This document shows, one piece after another, positions 1 through 7,995 of a stretch of DNA of 7,995 nucleotides. The notes beneath the pieces are model-generated. The model was not told where the DNA came from. It saw nothing but the letters and a program-made list of their open reading frames with translations, and searched no databases. Source of the stretch: a virus (Duplodnaviria > Heunggongvirae > Uroviricota > Caudoviricetes). Both the position numbers and the translations under genes were made by a program. Numbering within the stretch: position 1 is the first letter of the stretch; each line of letters opens with the position of its first letter. The stretch lies in the IMG/VR virus record IMGVR_UViG_2740892422_000008; one strand, given 5' to 3'.

Positions 1-1236
1 CTACGATAACCGCGCATTCAACATAGCTACCTGTTCGTCGTTCATGTCATCAATCCACATACCGTAAATTTCATACACCATCTGCGCAGTTTCATGCCCC
101 ATCTGGCTGGCTATAAATGCCGGGTTCGCTCCTGCCGTCAACAGCCAGCAGGCAAAAGTATGTCGCGTATGGTACGGATTACGGCGGCGAATACCAGCAC
201 GTTTTACTGCTGCATTCCATCTCGCACCCAAACTGCTTACCGAGTAATAAGGTTTCTGTTTTCCGTTACACATCCTGGGCATGAAAACAAAATGCAGTTT
301 TTGCTTTTCAGTTCTGCCGTACTCCCGATGATAAAAAGTGATTTCGCTTTTGCGATGATGCCCGGTCAGTTTGTATTGCTCCTTCAGTGCTTCAAGAGCT
401 GGCTGTAGTAGTGTTACCGTCCGGATCCCCGCATTTGTTTTTGGGGGACCGAACATATCAAGTATCGTCAGGTTTCTTCTGACATTCACAATTCCCTTCT
501 CGAAATCCACATCCTCCCACGCCAGAGCTGCCAGTTCCCCGTGACGAAGCCCGGAGTAAACGGCAAATTTCCACAAGTTCTGGCTCTGTCCTTTTTCACT
601 TTCCATTAATGCATTGAATTCTGTTTTAGATAACGGGTCAGGCTTTATTCTGTTTCGCTGTAATTTTTTTACTCCTTCAAATGGTTTGGTTGATATAAAT
701 CCCGACTGATACGCAAAACGTAACAACGAACAGAGCAGGGCGATATAGTTATCAACTGTGCGCACGGTTCTTCCTTTTTTGTTGGTTCTTGGATTATCCA
801 GGTAAAGCGTTTCTCCATGCAGCAGTTCATTCCGGTAGTTTAAGATATCGCTATAACGAATATGCGATATCGGGGTACTCTCACAAATTATTATCCTGAG
901 TGTTTTTAATTGTGATTTCGTTTTCTTCATTGTGTTTGTTGTTAACTCTGTCTCTTTAATTTTTGTCCAGATATCACAAAGCTCCCCGAACGTTTTTATG
1001 ACCCTCGTTGTCACCATTTTTGCCCCAGTGCTGGACTGGGGAAAACGTCTTAAATACTCAAATTCACCGGAATTGATTTCATGAACTATCAACGCTCTTA
1101 AATTCCCGGCTTTTTTAATGTTACTGTTAGTAACCTCCCAGCCTTTCAATGTTTCCCGACATCGTTTTCCTCGAAACATGAACCAGATGCGAATGTATTT
1201 ACCTCGAATCTCGACACCTGTTGGTAATTTAGACAT
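1..1236 (-). CDS. intR: Tyrosine-type site-specific integrase, Rac prophage IntR-like (411 aa, complete; stop codon at 1-3)
   Basis: Full-length minus-strand ORF with ATG at 1234-1236. The translation matches Rac IntR as I recall it (MSKLPTGVEIRG...). C-terminal catalytic signature of tyrosine recombinases is visible (H-x-x-R in NPYHTRHTF, tyrosine in the VYEIYGMW region). Start sits 1 nt from the xis stop, the usual xis-int arrangement. Confidence 0.92.
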   Translation of the reverse strand: MSKLPTGVEIRGKYIRIWFMFRGKRCRETLKGWEVTNSNIKKAGNLRALIVHEINSGEFEYLRRFPQSSTGAKMVTTRVIKTFGELCDIWTKIKETELTTNTMKKTKSQLKTLRIIICESTPISHIRYSDILNYRNELLHGETLYLDNPRTNKKGRTVRTVDNYIALLCSLLRFAYQSGFISTKPFEGVKKLQRNRIKPDPLSKTEFNALMESEKGQSQNLWKFAVYSGLRHGELAALAWEDVDFEKGIVNVRRNLTILDMFGPPKTNAGIRTVTLLQPALEALKEQYKLTGHHRKSEITFYHREYGRTEKQKLHFVFMPRMCNGKQKPYYSVSSLGARWNAAVKRAGIRRRNPYHTRHTFACWLLTAGANPAFIASQMGHETAQMVYEIYGMWIDDMNDEQVAMLNARLS

Positions 1237-1237
1237 A

Positions 1238-1453
1238 TCATGAGTCTTTGATAAACTGATTTATCTTTGGATAGTTGTACCAGATAATCCCTCGCTTACT
1301 GTCTGGTTTCCCTAAAGGAGATACTCGTTTGAAGTGGAAGCCTTCCACCCAACAGTTCTGGCGGTATGCTTCAATTTGTCTGGCCCCCAGACCAGTGCGA
1401 AGCATCAGGCCGTATTCAACCATCCACTCTTCATTAAAGATTACTTGTGCCAT
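1238..1453 (-). CDS. xisR: Excisionase-like protein (Rac XisR/YdaQ-like), 71 aa
   Basis: ORF immediately upstream of and co-oriented with int. I chose the ATG at 1451-1453 ([15 protein letters not shown]...) because it is preceded by GAGGTG at about 6 nt spacing; the track start at 1477 is a TTG extension. Sequence matches my recollection of K-12 YdaQ. Confidence 0.8.
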
Positions 1454-1504
1454 CGCATCACCTCTGGCAGGCGCCAATGTTAGACTGAAATTGACGCCCG
1501 ATGT

Positions 1505-1520
1505 TGATTATTAATAATCA
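1505..1520. promoter_or_regulatory. Perfect 16-bp AT-rich palindrome TGATTATTAATAATCA in the ydaC-xis spacer (candidate dimeric regulator binding site)
   Basis: Exact dyad symmetry read directly from the sequence, centred 52-67 bp upstream of the xis start codon. Confidence 0.3.
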
Positions 1521-1552
1521 GCTATGAAGTTTTAATTTGAATACAATGCAAT

Positions 1553-1753
1553 TCACGACGACTGAAGTTTCTCGCAATTAAAATTTATCAGTTTTACTTT
1601 CTGCTCTCTGGAAATGCCTGCTTCTTTTTTACCTGAGAGCATTTTTTCGCATTCTGATTTGGTTAATTTTGTTTTTGAGTACCTTGTCCAGTTAGTAGGA
1701 GTGCCACCTTCCTTTTCAATAGTGGCGGTAATTTTATACATGAACACCTCCAT
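1553..1753 (-). CDS. ydaC: YdaC-like small prophage protein of unknown function
   Basis: Minus-strand ORF (…MEVFMYKITATIEKEGGTPTNWTRYSKTKLTKSECEK…) resembling Rac YdaC from memory. Start is ambiguous: ATG at 1753 (66 aa), ATG at 1741 (62 aa, preceded by GGAGG at 5 nt spacing), or ATG at 1813 (86 aa, overlaps ralR by 80 nt). The 3' end of ralR overlaps the 5' region. Confidence 0.65.
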   Translation of the reverse strand: MEVFMYKITATIEKEGGTPTNWTRYSKTKLTKSECEKMLSGKKEAGISREQKVKLINFNCEKLQSS

Positions 1754-1928
1754 TATTATTTCCAGTGGTTCGTTTATTCCATCGTTCGAGTGCTTCTTTT
1801 TCACTTCCACCATAGCCGGTTCGGGATTCGCATCCGTTACACTTCGCGCGGTAATATCCTGAAATGGCTTTCACCGTTACTGATGGACAACCACAAAAAG
1901 GGCATGGTTTGACTTTTTCATACCGCAT
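1734..1928 (-). CDS. ralR: RalR (Lar) restriction-alleviation protein / type I toxin DNase, 64 aa
   Basis: MRYEKVKPCPFCGCPSVTVKAISGYYRAKCNGCESRTGYGGSEKEALERWNKRTTGNNNGGVHV matches my recollection of K-12 RalR. Two CxxC pairs (CPFCGC … CNGC) form a zinc-ribbon-like motif. The track start at 1943 adds 5 aa; the K-12-like start is the ATG at 1928. Confidence 0.85.
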   Translation of the reverse strand: MRYEKVKPCPFCGCPSVTVKAISGYYRAKCNGCESRTGYGGSEKEALERWNKRTTGNNNGGVHV

Positions 1929-1991
1929 TGTCTTTTCTCTCATAAAATAAAATTTTGTGATGGCGGTGAGGCTACACCGCCAAAGTAAATA

Positions 1992-3044
1992 TCAGGAGCC
2001 GATATATTCTGGTTTCATATCTGTCAGTGTCGTTTTATACGCCTCATATAATTCACCCAGATGTGGCCGGGCAGCATTCAGCGTATTTTCCAGAGCAGTA
2101 AATTTTTGTTCTGCTTCTGGATCACCTGAAGAAGGTAGGTCATTTATCATCTTCTCGATACGGGCAATAGCATTGAGACGGTGATGACGCTGAACCACTT
2201 TTCCTTTAAGTTCCGTATAGAGAGCGCCAAGTGTATTTTTATGATCTTCCACTTCCTGGCGAAGTGCTGTTGTTTCCCCGGTGCTTTGTGCCTGCTCAAT
2301 ACGTTCACGGAAAGCATCGATCCAGTTTTCCCCGGCATCCTGCTCAATAATTGTTGTTTCACGTTCCGCGCGGCAAGCGGAAGTGTTTTTATGTTCCTGA
2401 ACCGGATTAATGATTTTTTCCTGTGGCTCGTCCAGTTCGTCCCTGGTGTACACTCCAAGAATCACTTCGGGGCAATAAAGGCGCGCCCAGCGTTTCAGCG
2501 CCAGATAGGCAAGCTGCTGGCGAGGATCGTCGGCCCATAGCGTTGAATTACGTGTTCTGGCCTGCGCCAGAAGTAATTCCAGTACGCGTGGTTTACTTTC
2601 GCCGCGTAGTGTTGCCTGGACACGAACACCGATCCCGTTTTCATCGGCCAGCTTCCAGCCAGGTACACGATATTCTTTCCCTTTGTCGCTCTTCCTGATT
2701 TCAAATTTCCCGATAATTTTTTCCCACGGCCCGAACCAGTCATATTCAATACGCCCGGTTAGCGGCCCACGAGTACTGATTACGGCATTAACCAGTTGCG
2801 CTTCATATCCGAGCACACCATTCACAACGAAAGTTTTCTGAGCTACTGCGTAAGGGTTCATTTGCCACTGCATCGCCTGCATGGTGATGGCCATGCAGTC
2901 TGATGGATTTCCCCGGAGGTGTTCCGGTACAGTAGCCATGCCGGAAGCCATTACCTGGGAAAATGTCTGAATTGCAGCCAGGGACTGAGGGCTGAAAACC
3001 GCAACATTAGAGTTAATATTTTCTTGTTGAGTTAATTCGTTCAT
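1992..3044 (-). CDS. Phage single-strand annealing protein, Bet/Redbeta-like (RecT/Redbeta superfamily), 350 aa, with a ~130-aa helical C-terminal extension
   Basis: ATG at 3042-3044 preceded by GAGGAAGG, 11 nt downstream of the exonuclease stop (translationally coupled pair). Core motifs align by eye to lambda Bet: GNPSDCMAITMQAMQWQMNPY…VNGVLGYE versus GDASDAQFIALLIVANQYGLNPW…VVGVDGW, and KRWARLYCPEVILGVYTRDELDE versus KRMLRHKAMIQCARLAFGFAGIYDKDEAE. It is not the K-12 RecT sequence as I recall it. Confidence 0.72.
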   Translation of the reverse strand: MNELTQQENINSNVAVFSPQSLAAIQTFSQVMASGMATVPEHLRGNPSDCMAITMQAMQWQMNPYAVAQKTFVVNGVLGYEAQLVNAVISTRGPLTGRIEYDWFGPWEKIIGKFEIRKSDKGKEYRVPGWKLADENGIGVRVQATLRGESKPRVLELLLAQARTRNSTLWADDPRQQLAYLALKRWARLYCPEVILGVYTRDELDEPQEKIINPVQEHKNTSACRAERETTIIEQDAGENWIDAFRERIEQAQSTGETTALRQEVEDHKNTLGALYTELKGKVVQRHHRLNAIARIEKMINDLPSSGDPEAEQKFTALENTLNAARPHLGELYEAYKTTLTDMKPEYIGS

Positions 3045-3055
3045 TGTGTCCTTCC

Positions 3056-6000
3056 TCAGATGCTCAGTGCTTCAAGACGACGAAGATCAAAGTCGTTTAA
3101 TTCGTCGGTATAACTTTCGGTAATCGGTGCTGGCCAGTTGTTTGTCTCCAGGGCTTCGTTTATCTGGCGTAGCGTCCGGCGATATTCCTGTCGACCAAGT
3201 TCCAGGAGTTCCTGCGAGGCTTCCACGACTGCCACCCAGTGATAGCCAGCATCTTTGTTGACGAAGATCCAGAAAAATTTGTCCAGATTTGCCACATCGC
3301 AATACATTGCTGCGCTGAGGTGATAATCACGCTCAATAATTTCACGGTGCAGGCGATCTTTCAGTCGTTCCTGTCGCACATAACCGAGGCTGACTGACTT
3401 CACGTCGGCGCAAATGCTTTCGTATGGCAGCCGGATTTCGATATCAGGACGGACCCTGATTTCCAGCCCGGTTTCTTCATCAAACCCGAAATAGCTGATT
3501 TCAGATTTGCGATCCGGGTGGTTGAGTAGCCTTGCTGCATCAGTATTGTTTTGCAGTGCAGCGTGAATATTTTTTGCCTGTTCATACATATCTGAACTGA
3601 TAAACGTTTTCCCGGCGTTTTCTTCTTGCTGGCGTTTTTGCCAGTCCTCCAGGGTAACCAGTTCCGGGCGGATTTTCCGAGCGATTTCGGTTAATTGCTC
3701 TTTCGTGCCACTGATGTTGTAAGGCAAAGATTTAGCACGTTCTTTTTTCGCCAGTTCTGGATCTACAGTTTCAATTTGCTCCAGAAGTTGCTCCCGTGTT
3801 CCACTGGTTTTCAACAGAGGAGGGAGGTTTGCATTGTATTCTCTAATGCAGGCTTTCATTGCCGATGCAGTATGTTTCTCCTCCTCCGGAATACGCCGGA
3901 ATTCCACCGGAAGCGAACCGTAAAGGATGCCTGTTTCTTCGGCTCCAGCACTTACAGACAGTGGCTGTATAAGAGTGCTGTTGTAGCTTTCGATCCACTC
4001 TTTCATCTGCTCTGGTGTCATCAGTGCTGGCAGACTGGCATTGTGTTTTTTAATGATGGCGATCAGTTCGCTAGAAGTAGTAACCACATATTCAGGAACT
4101 GGTACCGGAATGGCATATTCATCAGCGAATTTATCCGTTTCCAGAACATAGCTGTGAATGATCCGCCCACGCAGCAGTGCATCACTTTCCTCGTTCGGAA
4201 TAGTTCCGGCAATGTGCCGTCCGTGGTAATACATCAGGCTGATACGGGCATCCTTCAGCATCGTGCTGCTTATTCCGTTGGCGGAGTGATAAACCTCGTT
4301 CGGGAGGTTTTCATAGCGGCCAGGCTCGAAATATGACGGCCACATGATTTCAGTTGCTACAGGAGCTGACGCTTCACCAGTTTCATCACTGCAATCACGA
4401 TGCGGATCGCTGCCAGCATTCTCATTGTGCGGATGTTCAGCGCCTTCCATTTCCACCGGATCTTTTTCCTTAGCTTCAACCTGATTCTCTTCATCGAATG
4501 TTTCCTGGTATGTTGCGTCGCCCGTCACCGCCCCACAGTCAGGGCAGTTATCTCCGCCAGTCTGACCGCAGGCATTGCAGACTATTTCCGGTTCCTGTTG
4601 CACTACTGGCTCAGGTTGTTTCACATCCGGGCTGGTTTTTTCCGTTTCTGGCTGGTTCTGGTACACAGAATCGCGAGTCTGGATCCCCTTAACCCATTTC
4701 GGATCGTTCGGGTCGCTAATTCCGTCAACAAATTCACCACGTGATGCAGCAAGCAATTTATCGGCATCGACAGGATTTTTTGATGGAATGTTTTTCCGGG
4801 CTTCATGGAGTTCTGCCCGCAGTTCCTGATATTTCGCATCAACAGAATTTACCGGTGACTGAGCATCCAGCGGCTGCGTGTCCTGATGATGTTTAGTTGC
4901 GTCCGGTTCCATTGTTTCAGCCTCTCCCTGTTCATCTGCCGTTGTTCCAGATGGTTGCGGTTTTTCTTCATCATCCTGTTTTCCTTCTTCTGTTACTCGC
5001 TGCGGCATCGGGGCAGAGGAGCGACCGCAGGCAATATCCACGATTTCCGGATCAGGGTTGGCATGATCGGTTTCAGTCAGTACTTTGTTCAGATATTCAG
5101 TGACGTGCGCGGGGGTGACCTCGATCCCAATTGGTGCTTCTTTTACGGACGCAACCACGATGGCGCGGGAATAATCCAGCCCGCCAGGCATGGTGATGAA
5201 TTTGTCGCGGAAAACAGAAAAGGGCGGTTTATTTTCAGCGATAATTTCCTCAATGCGTTTAGCGTGTGCCGGATGAAGGTTATAGATGTCCAGATCCATT
5301 GAACGGGCCAGTACGCCAGTGGCTACGTCGCGCGCCAGTGACGTCAGATCGTGTACGAAACCTTCGCCGCGATCGGTGAGGTTTCCGCCGCCAGCATTAG
5401 CACCGGAAGCCGTGCGAGTGATGTGTGAAACACGATTACCCTTCATCCACTCTTTTGTCAGCAGTCCTCGATCGGTGTAGTCAGCGTTCAGGTATGCTTC
5501 GAAAAAAGCAGTTATCAGTCCCAGGTTTGAATTACCAGGATTAGGGAAAACTTTGTCAGTGTCACGAACCAGTTTGTGGAGTTCGCGAATTTCCAGCGGG
5601 GCGAGCAGGCTGGTTTTGTGGGAAACAGCCAGGGCAGTAACAGCCGGTAGTTCTTCAGCCCGAGCAATGTGTAATGCCTGGAGTCCGTCGCGTGAAACGT
5701 GCGTTACCGGTTTTTCGCTGCCGTGTTGAGCAAGCCAACGAATGGGCAGTTCCTGGCCAGAAATTGGGAGTAGCATATTCTCCTCAATCTCAGTCATGTC
5801 TTCGCCGTTGACGTTGGTATTGCCTTGATAGTGAGCGTTGTCTGGTGCTGCTCCCGGTTTTAGTTCCCATGTCATGGAGTCTTTGCTGAGTTGATAGCGT
5901 TCACTCCAGGTAAAATCGATCTCACCTTCAGCGGGCAGGTCATTAACGACAGGAAAATTCGTGGCAACAGCTTTAAAATAGCTGCTCAGTTTTTTACCTG

Positions 6001-6127
6001 ACTTAACGATCAGGTAGTCCAGAGTGGCACAGGTCGATTCAAAATCGTCACTTGCCCACAGGACGACGTCAGGTTCACCGGATGATTTTTTCGCTTTCCG
6101 TAACAGGAAGAGTGGTTTTGTGCTCAT
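3056..6127 (-). CDS. recE: Exodeoxyribonuclease VIII (RecE-family 5'-3' dsDNA exonuclease), 1023 aa; N-terminal ~585 aa K-12 RecE-like, C-terminal PD-(D/E)XK domain divergent with a repeat insertion
   Basis: ATG at 6125-6127 with GAGGT upstream. N-terminus [26 protein letters not shown]… matches K-12 RecE from memory. The C-terminal domain keeps RecE-type motifs (YH…GIS.S.L.D; IRVRPDIE…ADVK matching the RPD…DVK catalytic core) but is otherwise divergent. Confidence 0.88.
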
Positions 6128-6199
6128 TGTTTTTTAACCTCAACTCAGATTAAAATTCGTTTTGTTCAGTGAATGATCTTGCCGGATACACACTGTTCA

Positions 6200-6222
6200 T
6201 AGCCTGCGCCATACGCAGGCTA
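6200..6222. other. Perfect 9-bp stem / 5-nt loop hairpin in the racC-recE intergenic spacer
   Basis: TAGCCTGCG ccata CGCAGGCTA. Followed on the plus strand by TTTCTTTC, but not by a U-tract on the minus (gene) strand. Confidence 0.3.
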
Positions 6223-6228
6223 TTTCTT

Positions 6229-6504
6229 TCAGATTTCACCTTTTAATTTCATTGCAATCAGAGTTGCCAGAAATCCGGCTTTTTTTTCTGCGGGCAGATT
6301 CTTTCCGATATGCACCAGGCTCATTTTTTTGACACCTTCGTGAAGTGTTTTAACGTTGCCTGATGGACCGTCGATATCAACTACAGTGAATGGGGTTTCT
6401 TTATTTTCTGTTTTAATCACGTAGCCAATACGCTTTCCTTCCAGATTAACTTCGTGAACAATGTCATCAGTAGTTACAACAGTGGCTTCATAACTGGTAA
6501 TCAT
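6229..6504 (-). CDS. racC: RacC prophage protein, 91 aa
   Basis: MITSYEATVVTTDDIVHEVNLEGKRIGYVIKTENKETPFTVVDIDGPSGNVKTL… matches K-12 RacC from memory. ATG at 6502-6504 is preceded by AAGGAG; the track start at 6552 is an upstream extension. Confidence 0.88.
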   Translation of the reverse strand: MITSYEATVVTTDDIVHEVNLEGKRIGYVIKTENKETPFTVVDIDGPSGNVKTLHEGVKKMSLVHIGKNLPAEKKAGFLATLIAMKLKGEI

Positions 6505-6578
6505 GTTTTTCTCCTTAATTAAGGTTGAGCGAATCCCTGCCATTGCTGGCATAAATTCAGTTTCGCATAGTCAGTTAA

Positions 6579-6749
6579 TTAAAGTTCGTGTGCCATCTGG
6601 TCTTTTTCGGCACATATTTCACTACAATATTTTTTCATTTCCGTCGTTGGGATAACTCCACGCATGAAATGAAGTGGTCTTTTAATGCTTTTGCTTTCTT
6701 TAACTTCTTTATCGCAAAGGTGGTAAGCACATTTTATTTTCTTAGTCAT
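6579..6749 (-). CDS. ydaE: YdaE-like small Cys4 zinc-binding protein, 56 aa (absent from the ORF track, below its size cut-off)
   Basis: Manual translation of the minus strand gives [56 protein letters not shown], stop TAA at 6579-6581. Cys pairs C7/C12 and C42/C46. Its ATG (6747-6749) overlaps the kilR stop as ATGA, indicating translational coupling. Position between kilR and racC matches the Rac gene order. Confidence 0.8.
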   Translation of the reverse strand: MTKKIKCAYHLCDKEVKESKSIKRPLHFMRGVIPTTEMKKYCSEICAEKDQMAHEL

Positions 6750-6970
6750 CACCATGACTCCGCCTTTACAGGTAAACCATCACGACCGAGGAAGACTTTA
6801 ATCATGCAGTCAGTAATGCATGTTTTTGTGGTCAGGTTACGAATATAAAGCTTTCGCTTTTTAATATTGTTTGCCGAGGCAATATATGTCCGGCCTTCAT
6901 GAAGAACATAATCGCCAGGAGTCACACACTGACGTGGTATTTCATCAGTTCCGAAGTGATGTGCAATCAT
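6749..6970 (-). CDS. kilR: KilR, Rac prophage cell-division (FtsZ) inhibitor, 73 aa
   Basis: [73 protein letters not shown] matches K-12 KilR from memory. ATG at 6968-6970 is preceded by GGAG at ~7 nt; the track start at 6982 adds 4 aa without a good RBS. Confidence 0.9.
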
Positions 6971-7141
6971 AATTATCTCCATTTTTACAAATGAACTTTG
7001 TTGATGCGGTGCCTGGTGCCTCCAGGTGACTGCAACCAGTTAACAATTACAGTCGGCTTTCCCACCCAAACCAATAAGGACTAACATGACTTTTAACTGT
7101 GCCACGTGCGCTTAGCCGCATTCACCGCATCACAAAACTCA

Positions 7142-7193
7142 CTTTAAAAAGGGCGGACATCAGCCGAACTTCAAGAAAAAAACTGATGCCGCC
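7142..7193 (-). terminator. Candidate intrinsic terminator on the minus strand, upstream of kilR
   Basis: Inverted repeat GGCGG(a)CATCAG (7152-7163) / CTGATGCCGCC (7183-7193): 11 bp with one bulged base and a 19-nt loop. On the minus-strand transcript it is followed directly by CUUUUUAAAGU (plus 7141-7151). No U-tract follows it on the plus strand. Confidence 0.35.
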
Positions 7194-7411
7194 AGGACTA
7201 CACACAGCAATGTCGTTATTTACAACCGGAGGCGCACTCCCACCATTTAAATTTAACAGACAAGACCGACTCTTTATGGATATCGGAAATGCGCCTTCGT
7301 GTTGTGCCCGGTTTTATTTCACCACCTCCGGGCTTCGGTGGTCTCGGCTATACCCCTACAGCGAGAGCTTGTGTTAACATTTCAATACCCTTACAGTTGA
7401 GAGTTATTGAT

Positions 7412-7900
7412 ATGTTGGATATATTTACTCCATTGTTGAAACTTTTTGCTAACGAGCCACTCGAAAGACTTATGTATACGATTATCATTTTTGGTCTCAC
7501 TCTCTGGCTGATACCGAAAGAGTTTACTGTCGCATTCAATGCTTATACTGAAATACCTTGGCTCTTTCAGATTATCGTTTTTGCCTTTTCTTTCGTGGTC
7601 GCCATTTCCTTCTCAAGATTGCGAGCACATATTCAAAAGCATTATTCATTACTACCAGAGCAACGAGTATTGCTTCGTTTATCTGAGAAAGAAATCGCTG
7701 TATTTAAAGATTTCCTTAAAACAGGAAATCTTATTATCACTTCTCCTTGCCGTAACCCGGTTATGAAAAAATTAGAACGGAAGGGCATCATTCAACATCA
7801 GAGTGATAGCGCAAACTGTTCTTATTATCTCGTCACCGAAAAATACTCCCATTTTATGAAGTTATTCTGGAACAGCAGGAGTAGACGTTTTAATCGTTAG
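7412..7900 (+). CDS. sieB: SieB superinfection exclusion protein, 162 aa, two predicted N-terminal transmembrane helices
   Basis: ATG at 7412 (MLDIFTPLLKLFANEPLERLMYTIIIFGLTLWLIPKEF…), stop TAG at 7898-7900. Matches Rac SieB from memory. Hydrophobic segments at about aa 21-36 and 48-67. The track start at 7289 is a non-ATG upstream extension. Confidence 0.88.
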   Translation: MLDIFTPLLKLFANEPLERLMYTIIIFGLTLWLIPKEFTVAFNAYTEIPWLFQIIVFAFSFVVAISFSRLRAHIQKHYSLLPEQRVLLRLSEKEIAVFKDFLKTGNLIITSPCRNPVMKKLERKGIIQHQSDSANCSYYLVTEKYSHFMKLFWNSRSRRFNR

Positions 7901-7902
7901 CT

Positions 7903-7925
7903 GGTGATGCTGCCAACTTACTGAT
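7903..7925 (+). repeat. IS1 left terminal inverted repeat (IRL, ~23 bp)
   Basis: GGTGATGCTGCCAACTTACTGAT, the canonical IS1 IRL. The matching IRR lies outside the window. Confidence 0.85.
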
Positions 7926-7957
7926 TTAGTGTATGATGGTGTTTTTGAGGTGCTCCA

Positions 7958-7995
7958 GTGGCTTCTGTTTCTATCAGCTGTCCCTCCTGTTCAGC
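7958..7995 (+). CDS. insA: IS1 InsA transposition regulator, 5' fragment (GTG start; continues beyond the window)
   Basis: GTG at 7958 followed by codons for ASVSISCPSCS…, the known InsA N-terminus. Only 12 codons are inside the window. Confidence 0.8.
   Translation, partial: MASVSISCPSCS

Follow-up and report, generated by a model that had tools for sequence, protein, structure and literature searches.

The RalR/RalA toxin-antitoxin locus of an Escherichia coli Rac prophage with an exchanged recombination module

The Rac prophage of Escherichia coli K-12 harbors the type I toxin-antitoxin pair formed by the toxin RalR (ralR, b1348) and the small RNA (sRNA) antitoxin RalA (ralA, b4714; Rfam family RF02694), and the support for RalA function depends on one experimental study, performed in K-12 (Guo et al., 2014, PMC4041452). 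RalR was reported to be a non-specific DNase when overproduced, and mutation of K52 inactivated the toxin (Guo et al., 2014). The ralA gene was described as lying inside ydaC and ending on the ralR stop codon, with a 3' hairpin as proposed terminator; the 5' end of the RNA was mapped by primer extension and Hfq bound RalA (Guo et al., 2014). The "16-nt repeat" of RalA (nt 63-78) forms 11 contiguous perfect pairs with its target. The antitoxin loses part of its activity with point mutations at 63 and 64 and all of it with a four-base change of the box, and matching changes in ralR restore it (Guo et al., 2014). Mutants of the ydaC start and stop codons still neutralized RalR, and the RNA alone, expressed from pBAD, was sufficient (Guo et al., 2014).

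Here we report on a window of 7,995 nucleotides (the whole stretch of DNA that was analysed; IMG/VR record IMGVR_UViG_2740892422_000008), which the list of open reading frames (ORFs) and the comparison with K-12 MG1655 (NC_000913, 1411000-1421000; locus L001) identify as the left arm of an E. coli Rac prophage. The locus studied is very probably the described RalR/RalA locus of Rac, complete and essentially unaltered. Every element of the pair is present in the window, in its place and intact in sequence, and the layout is that of a type I system, with a toxin gene, an adjacent antisense RNA gene and complementary boxes. The pair is thus already known and occurs here as a common natural allele.

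Layout of the locus and position of ralA

Positions 1-7902 of the window match at 100% the genomes of RM10740 (from a feral pig), LR-21-1 and several porcine ETEC strains, and at least 80% of the whole window is present in 138 complete E. coli genomes. The genes and neighboring features are listed below; intR, xisR, the RecT-family gene, the recE-like gene and the further genes were assigned from the ORF list and the K-12 comparison.

1-1236, minus strand: intR
1238-1453, minus strand: xisR
1553-1741, minus strand: ydaC, also rcbA (DUF1187), coding sequence of 62 aa overlapped by ralA (Pfam PF06688, RM10740 annotation, synonymous excess)
1557-1735, plus strand: ralA, gene of the 179-nt sRNA antitoxin, antisense to ydaC (Rfam RF02694, position of K-12 b4714)
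1734-1928, minus strand: ralR (lar), coding sequence of the 64-aa toxin, a Lar-family zinc-ribbon protein (ORF, K-12 identity, Pfam PF14354, RefSeq annotation)
1962-1981, no strand: inverted repeat GGCGGTG-N6-CACCGCC between recT and ralR (alignment, BLAST limits)
1992-3044, minus strand: RecT-family gene
3056-6127, minus strand: recE-like gene
Further genes of the window: racC, ydaE, kilR and sieB

At its end (7903-7995), directly after the sieB stop codon, the window carries the terminal sequence of an IS1 element (IS1A family), at a place where otherwise identical genomes such as RM10740 carry ydaF. Two sub-threshold Rfam matches were also seen near kilR: DicF at 7151-7206 on the minus strand (39.1 bits, gathering 48), which by offset falls within the equivalent of the K-12 ncRNA kilS (b4833) upstream of kilR, and, likewise before kilR, STnc100 at 6997-7135 on the minus strand (34.5 bits, gathering 47, E 1e-4).

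The ralR reading frame is intact. Translated from the start used by RefSeq, the ATG at 1928, it yields 64 aa; an alternative in-frame ATG upstream, at 1943, would yield a RalR of 69 aa. The product is identical to K-12 RalR at 62 of 64 residues, D4E and N5K being the sole differences, and K52 is retained. It matches Pfam PF14354 (Lar_restr_allev) with 53.2 bits (cutoff 28.6) and harbors both parts of the zinc-ribbon CxxC...CxxC motif (CPFCGC and CNGC), and the RefSeq annotation of identical genomes names it RalR toxin. Depending on whether ydaC is read from the ATG at 1741 or from the upstream in-frame ATG at 1753, the two genes overlap by 8 nt (1734-1741) or by 20 nt. An initial annotation, made from the sequence alone, had proposed an intact RalR toxin overlapping ydaC by 8-20 nt, and both statements hold. 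By analogy with the K-12 experiments, the RalR encoded here would be expected to be toxic and to act as a DNase. Sequence divergence from K-12 is raised from about 1899 onwards: the region of about 1899-1982, made up of the initial 30 nt of ralR and a 60-nt upstream spacer, shows approximately 80% identity, less than the rest. Any functional difference would lie in the expression signals of ralR, not in RalA.

The same annotation expected the antitoxin in the vicinity of ralR, in the interval 1478-1950, and left it unplaced. When the whole window is compared to Rfam, RF02694 (RalA, "RalR antitoxin") matches within this interval over its full length, model positions 1-179 of 179. The hit covers 1557-1735 of the plus strand and scores 212.7 bits (gathering 170, E 2.4e-51). 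This is the same place relative to intR, xisR and ralR as that of K-12 ralA, b4714, at L001 2557-2735. Alignment of the K-12 gene to the interval, as had been suggested, places it at the same coordinates and strand with 171 of 179 positions identical, and the scenario in which no ralA homolog maps here is thereby contradicted. The differences are at RalA positions 3, 59, 105, 110, 114, 116, 123 and 126; none of the eight touches the pairing box or the terminator hairpin. As in the arrangement reported for K-12 (Guo et al., 2014), the whole of ralA falls within ydaC, on the other strand, and the last 2 nt at its 3' end are shared with the ralR stop codon. RefSeq/PGAP records of identical genomes (e.g., RM10740, L002 3053-3428) list ralR and the DUF1187 protein and omit the ralA ncRNA, which only the K-12 record carries; in such records, the sRNA can therefore be found only by homology or with a covariance model.

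The neighboring recombination module is of a different type. Relative to K-12, the window shows 95.9% identity over 1-1982 and 97.7% over 4358-7902, and the segment in between (1983-4357) shows no similarity, so that all of recT and the C-terminal part of recE are replaced. The RecT protein encoded here has 350 aa, with the Pfam RecT domain at residues 30-209 followed by a C-terminal extension of about 140 aa (the K-12 recT coding sequence has 810 nt), and the recE product of 1023 aa combines an Exonuc_VIII N-terminal domain with a DUF3799 PDDEXK-like C-terminal domain. The exchanged segment starts 247 bp beyond the 3' end of RalA, and the inverted repeat at 1962-1981 is the last stretch that can be aligned to K-12 before it. 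The worry, raised initially, that such an exchange might have cost the locus its antitoxin is not borne out: the replacement is limited to 1983-4357 and the RalA elements are unchanged. A set of 89 loci encoding RalR, taken from GTDB genomes and IMG/VR, was further divided according to recT type, counting RalA as retained at an identity of at least 90%. RalA was kept in 56 of 56 loci with the recT type of the window and in 27 of 29 with the K-12 type. Among 5,426 complete E. coli genomes, 1,854 contain at least 80% of the ralA-ralR stretch, which in about 190 of these is at least 95% identical to the version of the window. The toxin-antitoxin pair has thus survived the exchange of the adjacent recombination module, and RalA is now exactly placed.

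Pairing box, fold and expression signals of RalA

The following elements of RalA and of its target were delineated in the window.

1542-1547, plus strand: TACAAT, candidate -10 element of ralA (sequence reading, in a region identical to K-12)
1558-1595, plus strand: 5' stem-loop of RalA (Rfam helix 1, minimum free energy (MFE) fold)
1619-1634, plus strand: pairing box, RalA nt 63-78, TGCTTCTTTTTTACCT (identical to K-12 and to the wild-type box from Table 1 of Guo et al., 2014)
1702-1735, plus strand: 3' hairpin of RalA and GUAAUUUU tail, proposed weak Rho-independent terminator (Rfam helix 6, MFE fold, K-12 identity)
1791-1806, minus strand: target of RalA in the ralR mRNA, ralR nt 123-138, AAGTGAAAAAGAAGCA, codons Ser-Glu-Lys-Glu-Ala (identical to K-12, matches Table 1 of Guo et al., 2014)

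The wild-type box sequence used for comparison was deduced from the mutant list in Table 1 of Guo et al. (2014, PMC4041452). Box and target form 11 contiguous Watson-Crick pairs followed by one G-U, two pairs, a mismatch and one pair. Full-length RNAduplex predictions of RalA against the ralR mRNA gave long meaningless duplexes that were no better than those of shuffled sequences, and a windowed local duplex search was used in their place. In this search the box was the best local RalA:ralR duplex (-18.2 kcal/mol), at the published place, with an energy that does not exceed chance, being equalled or bettered by 12 of 20 shuffled sRNAs.

The terminator hairpin, identical to that of K-12, is GC-rich, pairs 1702-1707 with 1722-1727 around a 14-nt loop, and is followed by U4. 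A generic consensus scan of 1238-2100 returned no terminator at all; that of RalA escapes it, with a loop longer than the 8 nt allowed and a tail of only 4 U. No consensus promoter was found at the right place for ralA in the same interval, which agrees with the initial annotation, where no convincing promoter-plus-terminator pair could be identified. The sole good promoter-like site on the plus strand, TTGACG-16-AATAAT at 1491-1518, was rejected, as transcription from it would begin about 30 nt ahead of the mapped 5' end. Positions 1454-1554 show no difference from K-12, and in the 100 bp that precede the mapped 5' end only -2 is changed (1555, T to A), a base that is also the one altering the ydaC stop codon. 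TACAAT, at -15 to -10 and 10 nt upstream of the mapped 5' end, would be the most plausible -10 element of ralA; it was not reported by the consensus scan, and no good -35 is visible upstream of it. A -10 element lacking a -35 would be consistent with the low RalA expression mentioned by Guo et al. (2014).

Structural effects are seen for three of the eight substitutions. With G3C, the 5' stem loses its outermost G-U pair, and A114U together with A116U breaks two pairs in the inner stem of the hairpin at 90-123. This hairpin is lost from the MFE fold, in which the 5' stem-loop, the box hairpin, the terminator and a long-range helix (42-56/131-145) persist. The corresponding helix of the Rfam structure (97-101/112-116) is broken in the window and in 15 of the 31 aligned haplotypes, these being the distinct sequences out of the 89 loci, and the allele with the broken hairpin is therefore a common natural variant. 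The folding energy of RalA is indistinguishable from that of shuffled sequences (z = 0.09), and covariation analysis of the Rfam structure over the 31 natural haplotypes gave next to no support, with one compensatory pair and uncompensated breaks in several helices. Since promoter, terminator, fold and duplex signals are all unremarkable, RalA is recognizable only by homology, and the case for its function comes from the K-12 experiments. Promoter, terminator, fold stability, duplex strength and covariation taken from the sequence stay at background level for this sRNA, which calls for caution about what such scans are able to see.

The overlapping ydaC gene and natural variants of the locus

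YdaC matches Pfam PF06688 over the entire profile (positions 1-61 of 61, 128.9 bits, E 9e-38) and is annotated as a DUF1187 protein in RM10740. Over codons 1-62 of the natural haplotypes, 30 of 51 variant alleles are synonymous and 21 non-synonymous, compared to an expected synonymous share of 20.6% (rough binomial P ~3e-9, alleles being treated as independent). Likewise, five of the eight differences between the window and K-12 within RalA leave the YdaC amino acid unchanged, and the other three fall in the codons of S24T and V43I. The strand opposite RalA evolves as a protein-coding gene, and this coding constraint probably accounts for most of the sequence conservation of RalA. The population data indicate purifying selection on the ydaC ORF, so that RalA and YdaC may both be real products; neither the coding constraint nor the population data contradict the RalA genetics of K-12. 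A constraint imposed by the box on ydaC synonymous sites was also looked for: RalA positions 66, 69 and 72 are invariant, a result which, with three sites, is not significant.

Codon 63 of ydaC is a TGA stop (1553-1555) in the window, as it is in most natural loci. The K-12 gene has AGA at this codon (L001 2553-2555) and continues for 7 extra codons, up to a stop at codon 70. The 62-aa form of YdaC is thus the majority form among natural loci, and the 69-aa form of K-12 the minority. A truncation of ydaC in the present strain was considered and ruled out, the 62-aa form being the majority one and equal to the Pfam profile length.

Within the box, an 11-12 nt core is nearly invariant among the natural loci, and at RalA 75-78 substitutions occur at sites synonymous in ydaC whether or not they preserve pairing. 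Only one locus, L017, shows natural compensation within the duplex: T63A in RalA is accompanied by the synonymous ralR change A138T; a related locus, L032, presents T63A without any change in ralR. Two further loci, L073 and L090 (~1694-1860, minus strand), exhibit an in-frame 12-nt deletion that removes RalA 59-70, i.e., the box core, and their ralR is intact. Both are natural Rac variants with a K-12-type recT and constitute candidate "box-less" RalA alleles.

More distant homologs were found in Citrobacter braakii (L009) and in a metagenome-assembled genome from soil (L010), where positions 1501-1900 encode a ralR homolog of 65-71% amino acid identity followed by an intact ydaC homolog of about 60%. 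Their homologous box shows no complementarity to ralR, and the best duplexes are no better than those of shuffled sequences. Both were tried as members of the RalA family and rejected, with Rfam scores of 35 and 29 bits, far under the gathering threshold of 170, and no conserved pairing. Trans-pairing by RalA may thus be specific to the Rac prophages of Escherichia and Shigella. A separate 2.9-kb contig binned as "uncultured Roseburia sp." (CALWLV010000260.1) encodes a Rac-type ralR of 97% amino acid identity together with a RalA scoring 221.9 bits; its assignment to Roseburia is most likely a binning artefact.

Alternative readings and comparison with known systems

If the locus operates as in K-12, ralA would be transcribed from the strand opposite ydaC and would end at the weak hairpin-U4 terminator overlapping the ralR stop codon. 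RalA nt 63-78 would then pair, aided by Hfq, with ralR coding nt 123-138 and block RalR synthesis. Transcription, translational repression and the resulting neutralization of RalR are, for the window, expectations carried over from K-12. The same holds for Hfq binding and the Hfq requirement, known only from the K-12 experiments. In the literature that could be searched, RalA was not named by any independent report of Hfq CLIP, CLASH or RIL-seq. The AU-rich stretches of RalA are retained in the window. The operon annotation recET-lar-ydaCQ implies co-transcription of ralR and ydaC, and in that case RalA would in addition be perfectly complementary to the 179 nt located just downstream of ralR.

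The main competing view starts from ydaC. It holds that the RalA-like sequence is conserved mainly, or perhaps only, as the reverse complement of ydaC/rcbA, that the sRNA is possibly poorly expressed or unimportant, and that the 16-nt complementarity arises as both genes encode (E/K)-K-E-A with the same codons. The full-profile match to DUF1187 (E 9e-38), the synonymous share of the variant alleles (30 of 51 against 20.6% expected) the silent nature, for YdaC, of five of the eight RalA differences, and the uncompensated breaking of RNA pairs by two of the eight all go in this direction. So do the variation of RalA 75-78 whatever the pairing, the Citrobacter and soil loci that keep the ralR-ydaC pair in the absence of box complementarity, and the two natural loci that retain ralR after deletion of the box core. 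However, in K-12 the ydaC start- and stop-codon mutants and the RNA expressed from pBAD still neutralized RalR, box mutations abolished and compensatory mutations restored this activity, Hfq bound the RNA and its 5' end was mapped (Guo et al., 2014, PMC4041452). The natural compensatory pair of L017 also argues for the duplex, and coding constraint and RNA function are not mutually exclusive; overall, we regard this view, including its account of the complementarity, as unlikely. A related reading has a somewhat better chance and is nevertheless doubtful: the DUF1187 protein would be the ancestral and general partner of Lar/RalR, or RalA would exert a cis-antisense control on a ralR-ydaC co-transcript, and the 16-nt pairing would be recent, Escherichia-specific and dispensable. 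A partnership fits the fact that ydaC accompanies ralR homologs in genera devoid of the pairing box, and dispensability fits the two natural loci that have lost the box core and kept ralR.

Two other readings concern the toxin. According to one, the antitoxin was lost or inactivated when recT/recE was exchanged, and ralR would now escape regulation or be regulated otherwise. Nothing was found in its support, the sole relevant change being the drop to about 80% identity at ~1899-1982, by which the expression signals of ralR could differ. RalA is full length, its box, target, terminator and upstream region are intact, the non-homologous segment begins only at 1983, 247 bp past the RalA 3' end, and RalA is retained in 56 of 56 loci with the same recT type; at the sequence level, an orphan toxin is refuted and we give it virtually no credit. 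According to the other, the main role of RalR in this prophage is that of Lar, the alleviation of type I restriction first described for Rac, instead of that of a DNase toxin, and RalA would control a phage anti-restriction gene and would not be an antitoxin. The name of the Pfam family ("Restriction alleviation protein Lar") and the location of ralR within a lambdoid prophage's early recombination operon speak for it, as does the fact that toxicity was shown through overproduction, its authors themselves considering a physiological killing role unclear (Guo et al., 2014, PMC4041452). On the contrary, the same article reports that purified RalR has DNase activity and does not inhibit restriction-modification (Guo et al., 2014, PMC4041452). 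The window itself does not discriminate between Lar and DNase. A primarily anti-restriction role appears highly improbable. The described RalR/RalA toxin-antitoxin pair remains our preferred reading. The discovery value of the locus is otherwise small, and its sole mildly novel thread is the relation of RalA to the selected DUF1187 gene that overlaps it.

Among described systems, the RalR/RalA locus of K-12 Rac is the closest. The gene order intR-xisR-ydaC/ralA-ralR and the length and position of RalA are the same, the 16-nt box, the target and the terminator hairpin are identical, and the upstream 100 bp are identical except at -2. The window differs by eight substitutions in RalA, by D4E and N5K in RalR, by the approximately 20% divergence of the ralR 5' end and spacer, by the ydaC stop at codon 63 instead of 70 and, next to the locus, by an unrelated recT and C-terminal part of recE. 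Other type I systems with short pairing, divergently or trans-encoded (TisB/IstR-1, ShoB/OhsC and ZorO/OrzO), similarly combine a toxin gene with a nearby sRNA of limited complementarity (16-21 nt; Guo et al., 2014, PMC4041452). Their toxins are small hydrophobic membrane peptides, whereas RalR is a soluble zinc-ribbon protein of DNase type. Moreover, the pairing of RalR/RalA is situated within the coding region, and the sRNA gene is antisense in a third, conserved protein-coding gene. This third gene, on the strand opposite ralA, encodes RcbA/YdaC (DUF1187), a "double-strand break reduction protein" (Felczak and Kaguni, 2012). The rcbA phenotype was ascribed by Guo et al. (2014, PMC4041452) to the loss of RalA, and the population data gathered here point to purifying selection on the ORF itself.
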